Shown: piece by piece, positions 3,116 through 19,267 of the stretch
Numbering within the stretch: the first letter of the stretch is position 1
Layout of the letters: each line of letters opens with the position of its first letter
IMG/VR virus record: IMGVR_UViG_2721755725_000016
Span: 1-19,267 of that record
Source of the DNA: a virus
Taxonomy: Duplodnaviria > Heunggongvirae > Uroviricota > Caudoviricetes
DNA: 19,267 nt
Strand: one strand, 5' to 3'
The notes under the pieces: model-generated
Database searches by the model: none
The model's input: the letters and a program-made list of their open reading frames with translations, nothing else
What the model was told of the DNA's origin: nothing
Translations under genes and position numbers: made by a program

Positions 3116-3441
3116 ATGACTAAAAATACTCGTTTTTCCCCGAAGTCCGTCAGCGGGCGATTCGTATGGTTCTGGAAAGTCAGGATGAATATGACTCACA
3201 GTGGGCGGCAATTTGTTCCATTGCCCCAAAGATTGGCTGTACGCCGGAGACTCTGCGTGTCTGGGTTCGCCAGCATGAGCGGGATACCGGGGGCGGTGAT
3301 GGTGGGCTCACCAGCGCTGAACGTCAGCGTCTGAAAGAGCTGGAACGTGAAAATCGTGAACTGCGCCGCAGTAACGATATCCTTCGCCAGGCTTCCGCTT
3401 ATTTTGCGAAGGCGGAGTTCGACCGCCTCTGGAAAAAATGA
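3116..3441 (+). pseudogene. IS orfA, frameshifted (C5 tract reduced to C4)
   Basis: Copies 2 and 3 read ttttCCCCCgaag; copy 1 reads ttttCCCCgaag at about 3140-3144. The reading frame breaks after MTKNTRFSP and resumes as the 3166..3441 ORF. Confidence 0.8.
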
Positions 3442-4328
3442 TGCCACTGCTGGATAAGCTGCGTGAGCAGTACGGGGTCGGACCGGTATGCAGCGAACTG
3501 CATATTGCCCCGTCAACGTATTACCATTGTCAGCAACAGCGACATCATCCGGATAAACGCAGTGCCCGTGCGCAGCACGACGACTGGCTGAAGAGAGAGA
3601 TACAGCGCGTATACGATGAAAATCATCAGGTGTACGGTGTGCGTAAAGTCTGGCGTCAGTTGTTACGGGAAGGAATCAGGGTGGCCAGATGTACAGTGGC
3701 ACGTCTCATGGCGGTTATGGGACTTGCCGGTGTTCTCCGGGGTAAAAAGGTCCGTACGACCATCAGCCGGAAAGCCGTTGCCGCAGGCGACCGCGTAAAC
3801 CGTCAGTTCGTGGCAGAACGACCTGACCAGCTGTGGGTGGCTGATTTTACTTACGTCAGCACATGGCAGGGCTTCGTCTATGTGGCGTTTATCATTGATG
3901 TGTTTGCCGGATACATCGTGGGGTGGCGGGTCTCATCGTCTATGGAAACGACATTCGTGCTGGATGCGCTGGAGCAGGCGTTGTGGGCCCGTCGTCCGTC
4001 TGGCACCATCCATCACAGCGATAAAGGCTCTCAGTATGTGTCACTGGCCTATACGGAGCGACTAAAAGAAGCCGGATTACTGGCATCAACAGGGAGTACA
4101 GGCGACTCGTATGACAACGCGATGGCTGAGAGCATCAATGGTCTTTACAAAGCGGAGGTAATACACCGTAAGAGCTGGAAAAACCGTGCAGAAGTGGAAC
4201 TGGCCACACTAACGTGGGTGGACTGGTATAACAATCGACGATTGCTGGGAAGGCTGGGCCATACTCCTCCGGCAGAAGCAGAAAAAGCTTATTATGCTTC
4301 CATCGGAAACGATGATCTGGCAGCCTGA
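3438..4328 (+). CDS. IS3-family transposase OrfB (296 aa)
   Basis: Identical 296-aa product in all three copies. Integrase-core motifs including [10 protein letters not shown]. Confidence 0.9.
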
Positions 4329-4370
4329 GTTCACAGATAAAACACTCTCCAGGAAACCCGGGGCGGTTCA

Positions 4371-4634
4371 GACTGAAGATAATGTGATTGCTCCCGCCTG
4401 CTCAACACTCTGTGATCGATACGAATCAGTTCGTACTTATCTACTAGGAAGTTGACTGTATCGGCTAAGGGGAATCCCGTTTTCAATATGTACCTTCATA
4501 ACAGTGTCGTCAATGCGCTGCGTATCGTTAAGAGTCAGGCTGTAGTGTTTGTCCTGCAGGTATGTAACTAGGGGCTGTCAGACGGTTACAGAGGACTTCG
4601 CCACACGTTTTCGGAATATAGGTAAAATTCTCAT
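4371..4634 (-). pseudogene. CbtA/YeeV/YpjF-family toxin remnant, multiply frameshifted and 3'-truncated by IS copy 1
   Basis: Manual minus-strand translation gives MRILP..., LQDKHYSLTLNDTQRIDDTVMKVHIENGIPL and ADTVNFLVDKYELIRIDHR in three different frames, matching my recollection of the CbtA-family order. The reading frame runs straight into the IS end at 4370. Confidence 0.7.
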
Positions 4635-4781
4635 CGTCGGTTATTCTGCGAATAAAAGAAATTAATTGCGGACGGGTTTTTCGCGGTACGTCACTGTCGT
4701 ATGGCAGCCAGCGTATCTTGGTTTATGCCCTGCTCCGTATTGTTATGTCGGTCGGTATGGCATAATGCAGTCCTAGCTTTT

Positions 4782-5130
4782 TCATCGCTGGCAAATGTAC
4801 CAGTGCGAACCGAAGGGGGATTCACCGATCATCCTTTTCGCATACAGCGTGACGGTCTGCTGATGACGGGGATTCAGTTCACCGCTGGTGAACATGAGTT
4901 CCAGTTGTTTCATCAGCAGTGGAAAGGCTTGGTCCAGATGGTATGCATCCGCATCGCTGAACCGGCCTCTGATACCGGCGCGGTCTGCAAGGTAATGCAA
5001 CTGATTGCCCTCCTGCACCAGACGGGCGCCAAAACGGGGTGTCACTGTCACGAACGGTGCAGGGCAGCCCCCACCAGGGGCGGTCGTGATTGTCGTCGGG
5101 ATAATTTGTTTCATGGAGCGTGTCTGACAC
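4782..5130 (-). pseudogene. CbeA/YeeU/YfjZ-family antitoxin with internal frameshift
   Basis: N-terminus MSDTLHETNYPDDNHDRPWWGLPCTV is in one frame (start 5130); the remainder ...TVTPRFGARLVQEGNQLHYLADRAGIRG... is in the +1 frame down to the stop at 4782. The break is near 5045-5055 and looks like a roughly 10-bp imperfect duplication (gtgacagtgaca). Confidence 0.6.
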
Positions 5131-5209
5131 GATAAAATCCTCACAGAAAATCGGTTAAGAACGGTCAGGTAATGTCGATAATTCTGCTCATCAGAATGCC
5201 CTTACTGAC

Positions 5210-5431
5210 TCAGTTCAGAGTGACGCTCATCAGCCGGACATACGGGCCAAAACTGTCCTTACGGCGTTCTGCAAACACGGCCAGCACACCGGGAATATTC
5301 TGCACTTCACGACCGGTATACGCCTTAGCACTGCCGTGCCAGCGGTATTTGCCGGTACAGAACGGAAAAAGACGGGATGCAGGATGCTGTTGGTGAATAC
5401 GCATGGCTTCACCACGGGTGATGATTTTCAT
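5210..5431 (-). CDS. DUF987 family protein (YeeT/YkfH/YpjJ-like, 73 aa)
   Basis: MKIITRGEAMRIHQQHP...FPFCTGKYRWHG...VRLMSVTLN closely matches the recalled YeeT-family sequence. Sits in the conserved position between the RadC-like gene and the antitoxin. Confidence 0.8.
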   Translation of the reverse strand: MKIITRGEAMRIHQQHPASRLFPFCTGKYRWHGSAKAYTGREVQNIPGVLAVFAERRKDSFGPYVRLMSVTLN

Positions 5432-5499
5432 GGTGTGATACCTCTGAAGACAGAAGATAAAAGTGAAAACAGGTGTGATGTGGTGGTGACGGTGACGGG

Positions 5500-5976
5500 T
5501 TAAAGCAGACCATGTTCGGCAAAGGAGAAAACCTGGTTGCCACCAACTATCAGATGGTCCGGCACCCGGATATCCACCAGGCCCAGTGCCTGTACCAGAC
5601 GTTCCGTGATAAGGCGGTCTGCCTTGCTGGGTGTGACTTCACCGGACGGGTGATTGTGTGCCAGCACCACGGCTGCGGCATTGTGGTACAGGGCGCGTTT
5701 AATCACTTCCCGGGGATGGACTTCCGTGCGGTTGATGGTGCCGGTGAAGAGGGTTTCACCGGCAATCAGCTGATTCTGGTTGTTCAGATACAGCACCCGG
5801 AATTCTTCACGCTCCAGTCCCGCCATGTTCAGAATCAGCCATTCCCGTGCCGTACGGGTGGAGGTGAAGGCCACGCCGGGTTCATGAAGATGGCGGTCCA
5901 GGGTTTTCAGGGCCCGCAGAATGAGGCTGCGCTCTCTGGTTGTCATTTCTCCGGGCAGAAAGGAAAGCTGCTGCAT
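5500..5976 (-). CDS. RadC-like JAB/MPN domain protein (YeeS/YfjY/YkfG family, 158 aa)
   Basis: JAMM-type motif HNHPSGEVTPSKAD and surrounding conserved context. Confidence 0.85.
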   Translation of the reverse strand: MQQLSFLPGEMTTRERSLILRALKTLDRHLHEPGVAFTSTRTAREWLILNMAGLEREEFRVLYLNNQNQLIAGETLFTGTINRTEVHPREVIKRALYHNAAAVVLAHNHPSGEVTPSKADRLITERLVQALGLVDIRVPDHLIVGGNQVFSFAEHGLL

Positions 5977-5991
5977 TGTTCCGGCCCCCTT

Positions 5992-6477
5992 TCAGTCGAT
6001 GATGCGCATAATGGCGTTGCATTCCGGATGCTGCAGGGCGTAATCCCGCAGCCGGTAATAATGGACCGTCATGGCATAACACTCCGTACGACAGGCATGA
6101 TGGCTGTACGTCATCAGACAGGCGGCAATACCGGCGGCTTCCGGGCTCATTTCAGCGCGGTTACCGTTCATGGCATTGAACAGTACCCATGTTTCTCCAT
6201 CATCTTCATCCGGTTCTGGAGCCATAAATGCCCCGCCGTTGTTCAGGGTGTACAGATTCCAGATACCACCACAGTAGTCTTCGCAAAGACGGTCCATCCA
6301 GCCGAAGATACGGGGCTCCAGGGTCACCCACTGTGAAATGAGGCCAAAATGTTGCGGCCAGAAGCTGATGCGCTGTTCATCAGGGACGAGAGTAGCAACC
6401 AGCTGAGGTGGGTTATTCCCTGATGCAGCGGTTACGGAAACAGAAGGTGTGGTGGAATTATGCGTAACGGTTGTCAT
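5992..6477 (-). CDS. antirestriction protein, KlcA/ArdB-like (YfjX/YafX family, 161 aa)
   Basis: Sequence character of the Antirestriction family and conserved position immediately upstream of the RadC-like gene. Confidence 0.75.
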   Translation of the reverse strand: MTTVTHNSTTPSVSVTAASGNNPPQLVATLVPDEQRISFWPQHFGLISQWVTLEPRIFGWMDRLCEDYCGGIWNLYTLNNGGAFMAPEPDEDDGETWVLFNAMNGNRAEMSPEAAGIAACLMTYSHHACRTECYAMTVHYYRLRDYALQHPECNAIMRIID

Positions 6478-6567
6478 GAGATTATTCCTTATAAAAAGTA
6501 AATGAATGGAAGAATGCCCGGGGAAGGGACAGCCGTGAGTCAGGACTGCGCTTTCAGGGAAAAGGCA

Positions 6568-7386
6568 TCAGCGCATGCTCTCCAGCAGCGTTTCTGCCAT
6601 CACCCACAATGCCCGGTTGAGCTTAATGTCGGTATCGATGCTGTGAATGGCACGGGTGTGGATACGTTTTCCTTTTGCACTGCGACCGGAAAGCCCGCCT
6701 TTCAGCATATTCTCCTGGATGGTCTGATAAGCACTCCACAGGTCCTTACCGTAATCCTCCCTGCGTCGTGGTGTCAGAATGTCGGCGGTGGTGACGGGCT
6801 GATGTTCGTCACCATAACGGTAAGTCAGTGCCGCCTGTGCCAGCGCCTGGCGTGCCGGTGGCGGCAGGACCAGCGACTGCATGGCATCACGCTTCTCCTC
6901 TATCCGGTCAAACACACCCACCACCTCGTAAGCCCCTTCAATGACTCTGTCCACCACATTTCCCCGGTGCGGAACACGCACTTCCCCCAGAGACTGACCA
7001 CAGACGCAGCCGTTCTGGCAGACGAATCTGAAGTAACCCGGCAGCATCTGGTAGCTGGAGGTACCGTCATGGGAGTTGAGCAGAATAATTTCAGGGACAT
7101 GTTGTCCGTTTATCTCCCCGTCACGGCGCAGACGCAGCATGTGTTTGGTATACCCCCGGCGGCCCGGGTCACGTACGCGGGTCTGGCAGGCGAAGAATGG
7201 CTGAAAGCCTTCCCGCTGCAGGCTTTCCAGCACTGTGATGGTGGGGATGTACGAATACCGTTCACTGCGGGAGGTATGCCGGTCTTCCCCAAAAATGCTG
7301 GGAACATAGTGCATCAGTTCTTCATGGGTCAGTGGGCGGTCACGGCGTATCTGATTAATCCGTCCGAAGCGACTGGCTAATCGCAT
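6568..7386 (-). CDS. DUF932 protein (YafZ/YfjQ-like, 272 aa from the preferred start)
   Basis: Preferred start ATG at 7384-7386 is preceded by AAGGAG at 7-nt spacing. The track's longer ORF starts at 7446. Conserved position upstream of the antirestriction gene. Confidence 0.7.
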   Translation of the reverse strand: MRLASRFGRINQIRRDRPLTHEELMHYVPSIFGEDRHTSRSERYSYIPTITVLESLQREGFQPFFACQTRVRDPGRRGYTKHMLRLRRDGEINGQHVPEIILLNSHDGTSSYQMLPGYFRFVCQNGCVCGQSLGEVRVPHRGNVVDRVIEGAYEVVGVFDRIEEKRDAMQSLVLPPPARQALAQAALTYRYGDEHQPVTTADILTPRRREDYGKDLWSAYQTIQENMLKGGLSGRSAKGKRIHTRAIHSIDTDIKLNRALWVMAETLLESMR

Positions 7387-7413
7387 AATTAACTCCTTAT
7401 CTGATAATGAAAT

Positions 7414-7450
7414 AAAAGCAAAAAGGCCATGTCCCCGGAGGAACATGGCC
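7414..7450 (-). terminator. rho-independent terminator downstream of the 312-aa secreted-protein gene
   Basis: 8-bp stem GGCCATGT/ACATGGCC (7425-7432 and 7443-7450) with a 10-nt loop, followed on the minus strand by UUUUUGCUUUU (7414-7424). Confidence 0.55.
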
Positions 7451-7475
7451 TGATGGAATATATTATTGCTGATGA

Positions 7476-8414
7476 TTAATGTTGCTGATTTTTCTCTTTA
7501 ACTTTTGACCATGAGGGGCGTCGGTTGCCGGAAAATTCCTTCTGCATTGACCAGTAACCAATCGGGAACTGCTTCACCAGCACCCCGTTGATACCAATAT
7601 CGACGGACAGATACTGACCGTTGTTGATGCTGCCCTTGCGGATGTACGCATCCGCACTGCAGGTGCCGGTATCATACTGCCGCCATGTTGCGGTATCGCG
7701 GGCGGCAACATAAAAATCACCGAAAGCACAGCCCGTTGCTGACTTACGATTCAGAACGGCAACGTAATACTTAGTGTTGGCTATAATGGCGCAACTGCTG
7801 CTCTGACCGCCGCAGACCTGCCATAACGTTTTGCTGCTGTCACCCTTAAAGGTCCAGATAGTGTCTGCCGGTGCGCCGTCTGTATGTGTTACTGGCAATG
7901 CCGGAGCCTGCTGCACTGGTGTAACGTCGGGTACGTCGCGGCGTAATAGTCGTGCTTCAGCATCCCCGACATCGCCAAACATGTTTTCCTCTCCGCTGTT
8001 GTAATAAAAACCGGCAATAACATGTTCTGAGGGGATATACAGTATTTTCAGATAATGGTCACCGCAATTACCCCGCTCACAGACAGACCCCAGCAGCCAC
8101 TTCTCGTCACCAACGACCACCGGAATTAATCCACTGTCAGGGCCGTTCATGGAGCCCTGTTTTCCCGTTAACCCGGTGAGTCCTGCTGACTTCAGCGCAT
8201 CATCAAGGTCTTTCTTGAATACCGGGTCGGCATCGTAGATACTGCCCAGAAAGGGGCAGGAACCGTATCCGTTTTCATTATCACCAGCATCAGGATCACA
8301 GCGCATTGCATCTGCTGCCGTTTTTGCGACACCGGCAGCGTAAACTCCGGTGGAAATAAAACAAAGCGAGGATATCAGTATTATCTGTTTTAATTTACGT
8401 AATACAAGAAACAT
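7476..8414 (-). CDS. secreted cysteine-rich protein (312 aa), function unknown
   Basis: N-terminal signal peptide MFLVLRKLKQIILISSLCFISTGVYA. Eight Cys in the mature part, including CERGNCGDH. Own RBS and own terminator. Confidence 0.65.
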   Translation of the reverse strand: MFLVLRKLKQIILISSLCFISTGVYAAGVAKTAADAMRCDPDAGDNENGYGSCPFLGSIYDADPVFKKDLDDALKSAGLTGLTGKQGSMNGPDSGLIPVVVGDEKWLLGSVCERGNCGDHYLKILYIPSEHVIAGFYYNSGEENMFGDVGDAEARLLRRDVPDVTPVQQAPALPVTHTDGAPADTIWTFKGDSSKTLWQVCGGQSSSCAIIANTKYYVAVLNRKSATGCAFGDFYVAARDTATWRQYDTGTCSADAYIRKGSINNGQYLSVDIGINGVLVKQFPIGYWSMQKEFSGNRRPSWSKVKEKNQQH

Positions 8415-17028: not shown

Positions 17029-17910
17029 CTATAAATCTCTACTCATTAAATCAGATATTTTTATCAAGCTCATTTCTCTGTCTTTGTTTACATAAAGCTG
17101 AAGCAAGCGGGTGTATCTCTCGCTTATAGATTCAAGTGCAAAAGGCTTTATTGATTCCTTAATAGCCTGCGTATCTTTCGGATCATCACTAAAAACCAAG
17201 GCAGAAATCATCGGATTGCTCACTTCCTTACCTGACTTCTCACCCCAAATCAGCAGATCAACAATAGGTATCACTCTATTAGATATCAACTTCTGAAGGG
17301 TCTTTAATCCAATCCTTTTCTGAGCGACATGCTCTCTCTCTGGTACTTTTAACTCTTTTCGCCATAGAGGTAGAAGGTGAGTCAGGCTGGTAATAATTTC
17401 GTCATCAGTGGCGTCATCTAAATCTATAGAAACGAGTATGATGTTAGGGGAACAATTACTTAGGTTTCCAGTAACACTCGCAAGCATAGCGTTTGCCTTG
17501 AGGTAGCAATCCTCTTCGTCTCTTTTAAAAAAGCCTTGATCTATCGATGAGAAAGAGTACATGGCCAGCTCTGAAAATGTTACTGGACTAACCCCCATAG
17601 CTGAAGATAATGAGGGAAGATCATCGTACTCATTTCTTAATGATGGGGCTTCATCATTTACTTTGCGAATAAATTCTTCGACCTCTTCCTCTTCTTCATT
17701 GAGAATGGTTAGGTTAGGATCGCCCGAAAAAATCCTTTCATATTTTATATCGTACTCTTCTTTGAATATAGCAGTGTCATCTTTTGCATGACGCAATAAA
17801 AAATCGCGCCACTCTAATTCTTGAATCAAGTCCGGCAAGGTTAAATCATTTAAAAATTCATAATTACTAATATCAAACCATGCTAAATCTTGTTTTTTGG
17901 CTCTCACCAT
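17029..17910 (-). CDS. AT-rich orphan protein (293 aa), acidic, no recognisable domain
   Basis: Clean ORF with visibly lower GC than the flanking int and alpA. Acidic runs EEEEEVEE and DLDDATDDE. Occupies the int-alpA slot. Confidence 0.6.
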   Translation of the reverse strand: MVRAKKQDLAWFDISNYEFLNDLTLPDLIQELEWRDFLLRHAKDDTAIFKEEYDIKYERIFSGDPNLTILNEEEEEVEEFIRKVNDEAPSLRNEYDDLPSLSSAMGVSPVTFSELAMYSFSSIDQGFFKRDEEDCYLKANAMLASVTGNLSNCSPNIILVSIDLDDATDDEIITSLTHLLPLWRKELKVPEREHVAQKRIGLKTLQKLISNRVIPIVDLLIWGEKSGKEVSNPMISALVFSDDPKDTQAIKESIKPFALESISERYTRLLQLYVNKDREMSLIKISDLMSRDL

Positions 17911-18052
17911 ACGCCACCCCGCGCCCCTAATTCTGACGGCTATGCCAGCCCGTAGGGGTGTACGGGTTTTCGGGGATCAGCCTAGACATAGCCTATTCTT
18001 TGTTCGTCTACATAAGTCTACTACCATTGCTTAACACGGTCTATTCATACAG

Positions 18053-19267
18053 TTAAGCTCGTTTCCCAAACGAACCATGAACAACGTTCTCCTCCTTCTC
18101 CAGCGCATCCATATAGTCGGCATACCATTGAAGCATCTCCCGCCTTCCATCCAGATATTGCGCATGGTTGTATGTGCCACGAATTGAGTTCTTATCAACG
18201 TGAGCGAGCTGCGTTTCTATCCACGCGGTGTTATAGCCCTGCTCATGCAAAATCGTGCTCATAGTGTGCCGGAACCCATGACCAGTTACACGTCCAGCGT
18301 AGCCAATGCGCTTAAACACTTGGTTTATGCTGGCCTCACTCATTGTTTTCCTTGGATCATTGCGCCCGGGAAACATAAGAGGGTAATTGCCTGTTATTTC
18401 TCTAATCTTCCCAATAAGCGAAAGAGCCTGATCAGACAATGGCACAATATGAGGCCGCCGCATTTTCATACGTGAAGCGGGTATCTCCCAGATAGCCTTG
18501 TTGAAATCAATTTCATCCCATAATGCGCCACGTAGTTCGCCAGTCCGCAAGCCGGTGATAATCAGTAGACGAGCCGCCATAACAACCAATGCGCTTCCTG
18601 AGTAACTGGACAATGCCTTGAAAAAATCAGGTAATTCTTTAGCTGTAAGGAAAGGGTAATGATTAGATTCATGGCCTTGCATCGCGCTAGTAAGGTCTGG
18701 TGCAGGGTTATACTCTGCGCGACCAGTGACTATTGCATAGCGGAAAACTTCCCCGCACCGCTGCCTCACTTTTTTGGCTTTTTCTGTAGCACCGCGCCCC
18801 TCGATGCGCCGCAGCACATTCAGAAGTTCAAGTGGTTTGATTTCGGCGATTGGTTTTTTGCCAATGTAAGGGAACACATCTTTGTTGAAGGCTTCGAGGA
18901 TGTCTGAAGCATAACCAGCAGACCATTTTTTTAATTTGCTGCTGTGCCACTCAAGGGCAATATCTTTGAAGGTGTTGTTTAACTGCGTTTCCCGGGCAAT
19001 CTTTTCCTCTCGTTTCGCTTCCATCGGATCGATACCACCAGCGATACCTCTTTTCGCATCTTCACGTTTTGCCCGAGCATCGGCTAGAGTAACCTCAGGA
19101 TACACACCTAGTGCCAATAGCTTCTCTTTACCAGCTACACGATATTTAAGTCGCCAGTATTTACCTCCATTAGGTTTTACCAAGAGATACAAACCGCCAC
19201 CATCGGCCAGCTTGTAAGCCTTCTCTTTTGGCTTGGCTGTGTCTATTTGACGGGCATTGAGTTTCAC
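18053..19267 (-). CDS. int: P4-type tyrosine integrase (at least 404 aa; begins at the window edge, possibly 5'-partial)
   Basis: N-terminal AKPKEKAYKLADGGGLYLLVKPNGGKYWR. Catalytic HGFRHT and C-terminal GTYNHAQY (Tyr). First codon in the window is GTG at 19265-19267. Confidence 0.9.
   Translation of the reverse strand: MKLNARQIDTAKPKEKAYKLADGGGLYLLVKPNGGKYWRLKYRVAGKEKLLALGVYPEVTLADARAKREDAKRGIAGGIDPMEAKREEKIARETQLNNTFKDIALEWHSSKLKKWSAGYASDILEAFNKDVFPYIGKKPIAEIKPLELLNVLRRIEGRGATEKAKKVRQRCGEVFRYAIVTGRAEYNPAPDLTSAMQGHESNHYPFLTAKELPDFFKALSSYSGSALVVMAARLLIITGLRTGELRGALWDEIDFNKAIWEIPASRMKMRRPHIVPLSDQALSLIGKIREITGNYPLMFPGRNDPRKTMSEASINQVFKRIGYAGRVTGHGFRHTMSTILHEQGYNTAWIETQLAHVDKNSIRGTYNHAQYLDGRREMLQWYADYMDALEKEENVVHGSFGKRA

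Follow-up and report, generated by a model that had tools for sequence, protein, structure and literature searches.

A DUF6387 gene between the int-alpA RNA and alpA in gammaproteobacterial integrative elements

The DNA considered here, hereafter referred to as the window, is the whole stretch of 19,267 nucleotides of the IMG/VR virus record IMGVR_UViG_2721755725_000016, in which a gene encoding a protein of the DUF6387 family (PF19924) is found between a P4-type integrase gene (int) and alpA, whose product is the master activator of the related phage-inducible chromosomal islands (PICIs) EcCIMP1 and EcCICFT073 (PMC11773190, PMC6092414). The structured int-alpA RNA, the DUF6387 gene and alpA constitute a portable block located at the int-proximal or attachment site (att)-proximal end of many gammaproteobacterial integrative elements. 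That RNA leader, DUF6387 and alpA invariably follow one another in this order in several element classes is a new observation, as are the reading of the int-alpA RNA as a cis leader and the absence of a match for the protein among solved or viral structures; the RefSeq annotation of the gene and its family membership were already known. Regarding its function, it is tentatively proposed that DUF6387 acts as a non-enzymatic, replaceable accessory factor of the excision or induction controlled by Int and AlpA. A widespread family of unknown function, tied in position to alpA across mobile-element classes, thus becomes part of a concrete three-part module.

DUF6387 and alpA across integrative elements

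The loci compared came from genomes and metagenomes, from IMG/VR and plasmid records, and from look-ups of gene positions, and, once copies at least 95% identical had been removed, 25 distinct loci were tallied, in addition to loci L051 and L053. Synteny with alpA was scored only where 450 bp or more of DNA was available downstream, and an AlpA gene was found directly downstream of DUF6387, on the same strand and 89-216 bp away, in 25 of 25 scorable distinct loci. This pairing spans 25-100% identity to the window protein, including the members at 25-35%. Additionally, a P4-type integrase gene was located directly upstream, on the same strand, in 17 of the 20 loci with enough upstream DNA, the loci with no adjacent integrase being L015, L042 and L050.

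Such DUF6387-alpA loci span at least five kinds of integrative element. Several of them are found in EcCIMP1-like PICIs, together with PICI genes, and L048 is a circle resembling a capsid-forming PICI (cf-PICI), with terminase and capsid genes. L015 and L050 display the layout of Enterobacteriaceae-associated ROD21-like (EARL) islands, with DUF6387 as the first gene at the island edge, the L025 island carries two additional tyrosine recombinases downstream of alpA, and YfjJ-like genes are present in L018 and L053. L051 corresponds to an island with a bacteriophage exclusion (BREX) system downstream of alpA, and L053, from Photobacterium damselae, to an island adjacent to fis, the characteristic integration site of the Vibrionaceae satellites called PICMIs (phage-inducible chromosomal minimalist islands) (PMC10803314). 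In L053 (7594..9419), DUF6387 and two tandem alpA genes follow directly after fis, with no integrase adjacent on that side. The L048 record itself (CP018459.1) is the circular K. pneumoniae "plasmid" pKp_Goe_795-4, of 16,971 bp, which carries terminases, a capsid protein, a head-tail adaptor, int, DUF6387 and alpA, and has the appearance of a capsid-forming PICI in its excised state, not of a plasmid.

The same gene pair can be recognized in elements that had been described before. ICEKp258.2 has the island-edge layout of L015 and L050: alpA (ORF27) and ORF28, annotated as a DUF6387 gene, close the element at the end away from int (PMC10763509). In ROD21, SEN1999 (876 bp), found beside SEN1998, which encodes a recombination directionality factor of the AlpA type, is probably a DUF6387 member, as judged by length and position only. 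With this probable member and the annotated ORF28, existing mutant systems could be used to study the family.

Recognizable cargo was observed elsewhere in two loci, L042 and L051, and the position of DUF6387 is kept in both. In L042 (1133..3617), a 3.1-kb insertion found between the 3' end of int and the int-alpA RNA contains a Panacea-domain (SocA-like) antitoxin-like gene and small open reading frames (ORFs), in a toxin-antitoxin-like arrangement. This insertion represents a second insertion point within one intergenic region.

A first-pass annotation of the window had described the gene as an orphan ORF of 293 residues, situated between a P4-type integrase gene and alpA on the same strand. 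The position was borne out by the ORF and Pfam calls; the orphan status had to be abandoned, since the product is a full-length PF19924 member (132 bits, E 3.7e-38), its residues 5-269 matching positions 6-256 of the 258-position profile. Membership was defined by the gathering score of 28.9 bits and near full-length coverage, and all 51 members of the deep alignment also match this profile. In fact, the identical protein WP_000251023.1 is annotated in RefSeq as a "DUF6387 family protein" in Escherichia coli and E. albertii, in the gene order tRNA-Thr, int, DUF6387, alpA. Close homologues of the window protein number 47 across Enterobacterales, and 497 cluster-50 representatives of the family were returned by a profile search, to which a further protein search with the deep alignment added just two clusters. 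Members are named in Photobacterium, Oceanisphaera, Marinobacterium and Amphritea. No NCBIfam entry matched the window protein, its PHROGs match was solely to a family of unknown function, and, in the literature searched, DUF6387 occurs only in gene-table entries, with function unassigned. The family hardly occurs in true phage genomes, with 0 of 50,697 records once the only match, from a Salmonella contig filed there by mistake, is set aside, and plasmids seldom carry it (5 of 72,556 records); DUF6387 can therefore be considered an island gene.

The ATG start codon of the window ORF aligns with the N-termini of the homologues and the ratio of nonsynonymous to synonymous substitution rates (dN/dS) against a 90%-identical homologue is 0.21; because of these two results, obtained from sequence comparison, the ORF is taken as a genuine gene under purifying selection. 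The decay of the window island, with three IS1203 insertions and a truncated primase, could point instead to a passenger without function, carried along with alpA as it decays. A 98%-identical copy in the IMG/VR contig L044 (3923..4879) is in fact a pseudogene, split into three ORFs. However, the dN/dS value, the full-length conservation down to 25% identity in several orders of Gammaproteobacteria, and the conservation of leader, Shine-Dalgarno sequence and start codon make a passenger very improbable.

The int-alpA RNA and the region upstream of alpA

The gene order described above includes a structured RNA, since the Rfam int-alpA family (RF02996) was detected in the window above its gathering threshold, ending 14 nt before the DUF6387 start codon. 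The same RNA was found 13-16 nt upstream of the ORF that occupies the position between int and alpA, hereafter the slot, in ten other DUF6387 loci, and also at the same position in L024, although the slot ORF of this locus is an unrelated gene of 265 codons. The twelve instances are those of the window, L003, L004, L010, L012, L024, L029, L030, L032, L034, L039 and L042; in L022 and L023 no int-alpA RNA reached the gathering score. When the twelve sequences were aligned, the RNA motif, the GAGGTG Shine-Dalgarno sequence and the ATG together showed a mean column identity of 81%, and this leader was therefore more conserved than the proteins encoded downstream, which are 43-90% identical to the window protein and unrelated to it in one locus. 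All 180 of 180 pair cells were paired in these sequences, compensatory changes were observed in 7 of the 15 pairs, and none of 500 shuffles reached the observed covariation score. The helices are thus supported by covariation, and the window copy displays the same three-helix architecture as RF02996.

Rfam types this RNA as a gene of the small RNA class, whereas the loci compared here place it just before the start codon of the slot ORF. Because the RNA always lies 13-16 nt before that codon and a conserved Shine-Dalgarno sequence is shared, the alignments suggest that the int-alpA RNA is a cis-acting 5' leader of the slot gene. Additionally, a gap of 14 nt leaves no room for a promoter, so that the slot gene must be transcribed through the int-alpA RNA. 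According to the mechanism proposed, a transcript coming from the int side would read through the RNA leader, and DUF6387 would be translated behind it. An alternative fold is also predicted for the window sequence, in which the C-rich loops of the motif would pair with the G-rich ribosome-binding region.

The spacer between DUF6387 and alpA is also predicted to be structured. Folding of the 105 nt that follow the stop codon of DUF6387 gives -27.2 kcal/mol (z = -5.6), a value that includes a strong hairpin located 40-85 nt after the stop, and hairpins of differing sequence occupy the equivalent position in 11 other loci. A canonical U-run follows the hairpin in only 2 of 12 loci, L006 and L007, the window hairpin was not called by a consensus terminator scan, and the hairpin sequence varies between allele groups. 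The inverted-repeat core CGCTTTG...CAAAGCG is kept in the window, L029, L040 and L007 despite saturated synonymous sites. The hairpin could serve as a terminator or insulator, or be an inverted repeat to which a protein binds. The single repeat difference between the window and L029, two close relatives, keeps RNA pairing by means of a G-U pair, whereas a palindrome in the DNA would be disrupted by it; an RNA hairpin or terminator is thus favoured over an operator.

Immediately upstream of alpA, a leader with a weaker predicted fold (Table 1) was identified, in which CUCCU and CUGUC segments can pair, according to the folding model, with the alpA Shine-Dalgarno region (GACAG...AGGAG), and which also contains tandem GTCTAC-like repeats. 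An analogous hairpin between Shine-Dalgarno and anti-Shine-Dalgarno segments is predicted before most of 19 alpA genes, including those without DUF6387; among these leaders are L003, L007, L011, L012, L015, L018, L020, L021 (CP4-57), L024 and L025. Apparent compensatory changes were observed, with CTCCC/GGGAG in L012 and CTCCT/AGGAG elsewhere. Such predicted hairpins may provide translational control of alpA.

Slot exchange and the possible role of DUF6387

The unit exchanged at the slot was delimited by comparison with the sister islands of E. coli M10 and EH09-18-41, which share the tRNA-Thr insertion site, the breakpoints being placed by blastn against L022 and L023. The flanks are 95-99% identical to those of the sister islands, and homology ends abruptly at window positions 16822 and 18077. 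Between these positions lie the final 8 codons of int, the RNA leader, DUF6387, the full region upstream of alpA and the first 3 codons of alpA. The earlier suggestion that the gene is an independently acquired cassette, more AT-rich than both neighbours, is thus upheld, the GC content being 38.0% in the DUF6387 gene (36.1% at third codon positions), 47.6% in int and 43.4% in alpA. The corresponding values are 46.3% for the gene of 143 codons and 48.9% for antA, both in the same island, and 34.0% for the DUF6387-alpA spacer.

The occupants of the slot differ among related islands. An ORF of 129 codons on the opposite strand is found in M10, no annotated gene in EH09-18-41, a 265-residue coiled-coil protein unrelated to DUF6387 in TUM9757, and a distant DUF6387 in p10B. 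Of 5,426 complete E. coli genomes, 86 carry the DUF6387 allele and 153 the 265-residue allele, and an EcCIMP1-type slot sequence was detected in 663, of which 29 carry it at full length. In the CP4-57 element of E. coli K-12, the place between intA and alpA is taken by yfjH, encoded on the opposite strand, as the first-pass annotation had stated. Neither alternative gene is a diverged DUF6387, given that yfjH has no Pfam DUF6387 match and an hhalign probability of 0.3%, and that this probability was below 1% for the 265-residue gene.

Replacement was also detected inside the DUF6387 family. L010 and L039 share 99% identity in Int and 97-98% in AlpA, and the identity of their DUF6387 proteins is just 48-55%, a value that varies with the alignment used; homology at the nucleotide level ends at codon 45 of DUF6387 and resumes exactly at the alpA ATG. 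In both this pair and L006/L007, Int and/or AlpA proteins 92-99% identical accompany DUF6387 alleles that are just 46-55% identical. As read from these alignments, the pattern is one of allelic replacement.

An AlphaFold2 model of the window protein, built from an alignment of 51 sequences (pLDDT 90.2, pTM 0.82), predicts nearly all helix, plus two short strand pairs. No match was retrieved by Foldseek against BFVD at E <= 0.001, and profile searches of PDB sequences were empty or insignificant; the model is therefore without a match among solved or viral structures, and no homology to a characterized housekeeping or structural family emerged that would contradict the earlier description. The protein is acidic (isoelectric point (pI) 4.6, net charge -20), and both poly-acidic stretches reported previously, EEEEEVEE and DLDDATDDE, are present in its translation. 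Only W11, Y17 and R184 (window numbering) are invariant in the deep alignment and F12, R35, D169, L180, D218 and T253 are near-invariant, all of these residues being present in the window protein. There is no invariant His, Cys, Ser, Lys or Glu and no catalytic signature in this alignment, no second Pfam domain in the window protein or the 51-member alignment, and no helix-turn-helix or other DNA-binding domain was detected, in agreement with the earlier remark that no catalytic or DNA-binding motif could be recognized. No long hydrophobic stretch was obvious when the sequence was read by eye, no transmembrane prediction having been run. A HEPN-like motif around R184 was rejected, since no His is conserved, and so was a directionality factor of the AlpA/Xis type, a winged helix of about 60-90 residues, in view of the 293-residue length, the pI and the lack of an HTH_17 or Phage_AlpA match; the gene resembling such a factor is the neighbouring alpA. 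Because of the few invariant residues, none of catalytic type, and of the lack of another domain or an obvious hydrophobic stretch, the residue pattern fits a binding protein better than an effector, and DUF6387 is provisionally seen as a non-enzymatic binding or adaptor protein.

A binding protein encoded at an exchangeable position could also be the product of a conflict gene, involved in phage defence, anti-defence, helper interference or superinfection exclusion through binding of a phage or host protein, and the first-pass annotation had pointed to defence or anti-defence cargo. This alternative would account for the polymorphism of the slot between nearly identical flanks, the AT-rich nature of the cassette (39% GC), the swapping of divergent DUF6387 alleles between near-identical int and alpA genes, and the acidic, non-enzymatic character that DUF6387 has in common with many inhibitor proteins. 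Additionally, the slot gene of EcCIMP1 was regarded by the authors of that study as a possible accessory gene (PMC11773190), and P4-like satellites have a defence hotspot beside int (cited in PMC10803314). However, in PADLOC-DB 2.0 no family matched DUF6387 at E <= 1, and none matched the alternative slot occupants or yfjH. In all 25 scorable loci DUF6387 is found directly upstream of alpA, whereas hotspot cargo normally occurs in many contexts, and recognizable cargo occupies other positions of the same elements, as in L042 and L051. Furthermore, no effector signature or catalytic invariant was recognized, with hydrophobicity judged as stated above, and the defence hotspot of PICMIs is located at the other end of the element, between prim and fis, and not between int and alpA (PMC10803314). 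Therefore, the proposed variable nature of the slot holds among sister islands, but DUF6387 does not behave as free cargo, and its assignment to defence is unsupported. On the synteny evidence, defence cargo seems less likely than a role tied to AlpA, and a conflict gene is considered unlikely overall. If DUF6387 were such a gene, it would represent a new single-gene system and the slot a new hotspot in PICIs.

The role as an accessory factor of Int and AlpA has a precedent in PICMIs. A previous study reported that these satellites carry a gene with no known function immediately following int and ahead of alpA, termed iolg or icg for integrase-overlapping or integrase-contiguous gene, that this position is occupied by 13 unrelated families and empty in some elements, and that the iolg of PICMI115 is necessary for excision, a requirement shown for that gene only (PMC10803314). 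DUF6387 resembles these genes in being a same-strand gene contiguous with int or overlapping it, upstream of alpA; in L048 it overlaps int by 4 nt, exactly as iolg, and the family also occurs in Vibrionaceae, beside fis. On the other hand, the window gene is separated from int by 142 nt and preceded by the RNA leader, and can be likened to iolg/icg by position alone. The supplements of that study, which give locus tags only, name neither DUF6387 nor PF19924 (PMC10803314). By this analogy, DUF6387 would be the positional and functional counterpart of the iolg/icg genes and would act with Int and/or AlpA on the control of excision, integration or induction. Its contribution would be modulatory or specificity-giving rather than a core requirement, since EcCIMP1 works with another occupant and many sister islands have no slot gene.

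Another possible role concerns the way in which alpA is switched on by helper phages in Gram-negative PICIs. Helper-phage sensing and the triggering of AlpA were stated as an open question in previous studies, in which this switching is unexplained and no repressor was found (PMC6092414, PMC10803314). In Gram-positive SaPI/PICI elements, the master repressor Stl (Rpr) is likewise encoded between int and an excision or activation gene. This protein is mid-sized and strongly different between related islands. DUF6387 might accordingly be a regulator or sensor comparable to Stl, keeping the expression of alpA or the activity of AlpA shut down until a signal from a helper phage or the host is received, with the DUF6387 allele and the co-inherited alpA upstream region setting the specificity of induction. 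In its broadest form, which is improbable, RNA leader, DUF6387 and alpA would constitute an unrecognized control switch with the new-fold DUF6387 as its sensor or gatekeeper. This switch would be common to Gram-negative satellites (PICIs, cf-PICIs and PICMI-like elements), ROD21-like islands and defence islands, and would couple AlpA-driven excision or induction to the helper-phage or host signal, swapped alleles determining its specificity.

Some observations are consistent with such a regulator. DUF6387 and the entire alpA upstream region fall within one exchanged unit, the DNA separating the two genes contains an inverted repeat of conserved position, with its core kept in four loci, and residues 166-230 are basic (pI 8-10) in the subfamily to which the window protein belongs. 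In addition, the variation of the spacer follows that of DUF6387 (rho 0.64) more than that of AlpA (rho 0.43), correlations that are descriptive, as the pairs are not independent, and only suggestive, since physical linkage alone can explain such co-variation. However, the N-terminal helix-turn-helix and the divergent transcription of Stl/Rpr-type repressors are not found in DUF6387, which is co-directional with alpA and for which no DNA-binding domain of any type was detected. E. coli sister islands of the L023 type have no slot gene, the inducible EcCIMP1 carries an unrelated one, and the repeat change between the window and L029 favours an RNA hairpin or terminator over an operator. These findings leave an Stl-like role improbable, and the replaceable accessory factor remains the preferred, if tentative, explanation.

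The host island

The window island appears to be a decayed EcCIMP1-like phage satellite (PICI), inserted at a tRNA-Thr next to proA in a chromosome of the E. coli O111:H8 type of Shiga toxin-producing E. coli. Its first gene is int, which adjoins the tRNA-Thr (thrW) just outside the window, and the backbone continues with alpA, the gene of 143 codons, an AntA-type antirepressor gene, DUF4222, the gene of an Ash-family protein, small ORFs, a TOPRIM/DUF927 primase gene and PerC. A PICI would have an integrase gene beside a specific att site, then alpA and a replication (primase) module, and would lack genes for phage structure or lysis. In the window island the order tRNA-Thr, int, alpA, antA, ash matches that of EcCIMP1-type islands at 95-99% identity, but the primase is annotated as truncated and the island is interrupted by three IS1203 copies.

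Table 1. Coordinates of features in the window
Feature	Position	Strand	Basis or remark
P4-type tyrosine integrase, 404 residues	18053..19267	minus	Arm-DNA-bind_3, Phage_int_M, Phage_integrase (Pfam)
Exchanged segment, 1,254 bp, 39.0% GC	16823..18076		blastn breakpoints
Structured RNA, Rfam int-alpA (RF02996)	17925..17992	minus	46.7 bits, gathering threshold 35.8
DUF6387 gene (PF19924), 293 residues, acidic, predicted all-helical	17029..17910	minus	Pfam match, homologues, model
Strong hairpin, 40-85 nt after DUF6387 stop	16944..16989	minus	folding
alpA leader	16832..16894	minus	predicted fold -18.1 kcal/mol, z = -2.1
alpA, 65 residues, AlpA-family regulator/excisionase	16634..16831	minus	Phage_AlpA, E 8.9e-20
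AntA-type antirepressor	15357..16190	minus	
C4 antisense RNA (RF01695) and isrK (RF01394)	13277..13364 and 13427..13504	minus	in or beside the Ash-family gene
IS1203 (IS3-family) copy	3396..3512	plus	ALIL frameshift pseudoknot
IS1203 (IS3-family) copy	9798..9914	minus	ALIL frameshift pseudoknot
IS1203 (IS3-family) copy	14836..14952	minus	ALIL frameshift pseudoknot
Region with toxin, antitoxin and antirestriction genes	about 4300..8400		equals L026 5832..9917

In EcCIMP1, the PICI of E. coli MP1 and the only one of these islands for which excision, replication and packaging induced by a helper phage have been shown, alpA is the master regulator, and induction and transduction by phage Kapi1 were demonstrated experimentally (PMC11773190). 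The window island shares with it the insertion site, between proA and yagU, and the backbone of int, alpA, antirepressor, Ash-family protein, primase and PerC, and differs from it in the slot, where the EcCIMP1_002-type occupant is unrelated to DUF6387, and in its integrity. In fact, the window copy is broken by IS1203 and its primase is annotated as truncated in the genome matching the window; because of the three insertions and this truncation, the copy is probably immobile. For the window itself the message is therefore modest, the gene being already annotated and the island decayed.

Other observations concern the neighbouring genes. The C-terminal half of the AntA-type antirepressor (residues 166-266) matches PDC-S22 of PADLOC, a candidate defence model, at E 1.2e-10. 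The arrangement of the C4 antisense RNA and isrK resembles the immunity regions of the P4/P1 type, and the pair is also present in L022, L023 and L029. The region at about 4300..8400 of the window contains fragments of a CbtA-family toxin gene, a frameshifted gene for a YeeU-family antitoxin, DUF987, and the genes of a JAB-domain protein, an antirestriction protein and DUF932, and beyond it a DNA cytosine methyltransferase and an HNH endonuclease are encoded. This region looks like the remnant of a second, CP4-44-like island fused to the PICI.

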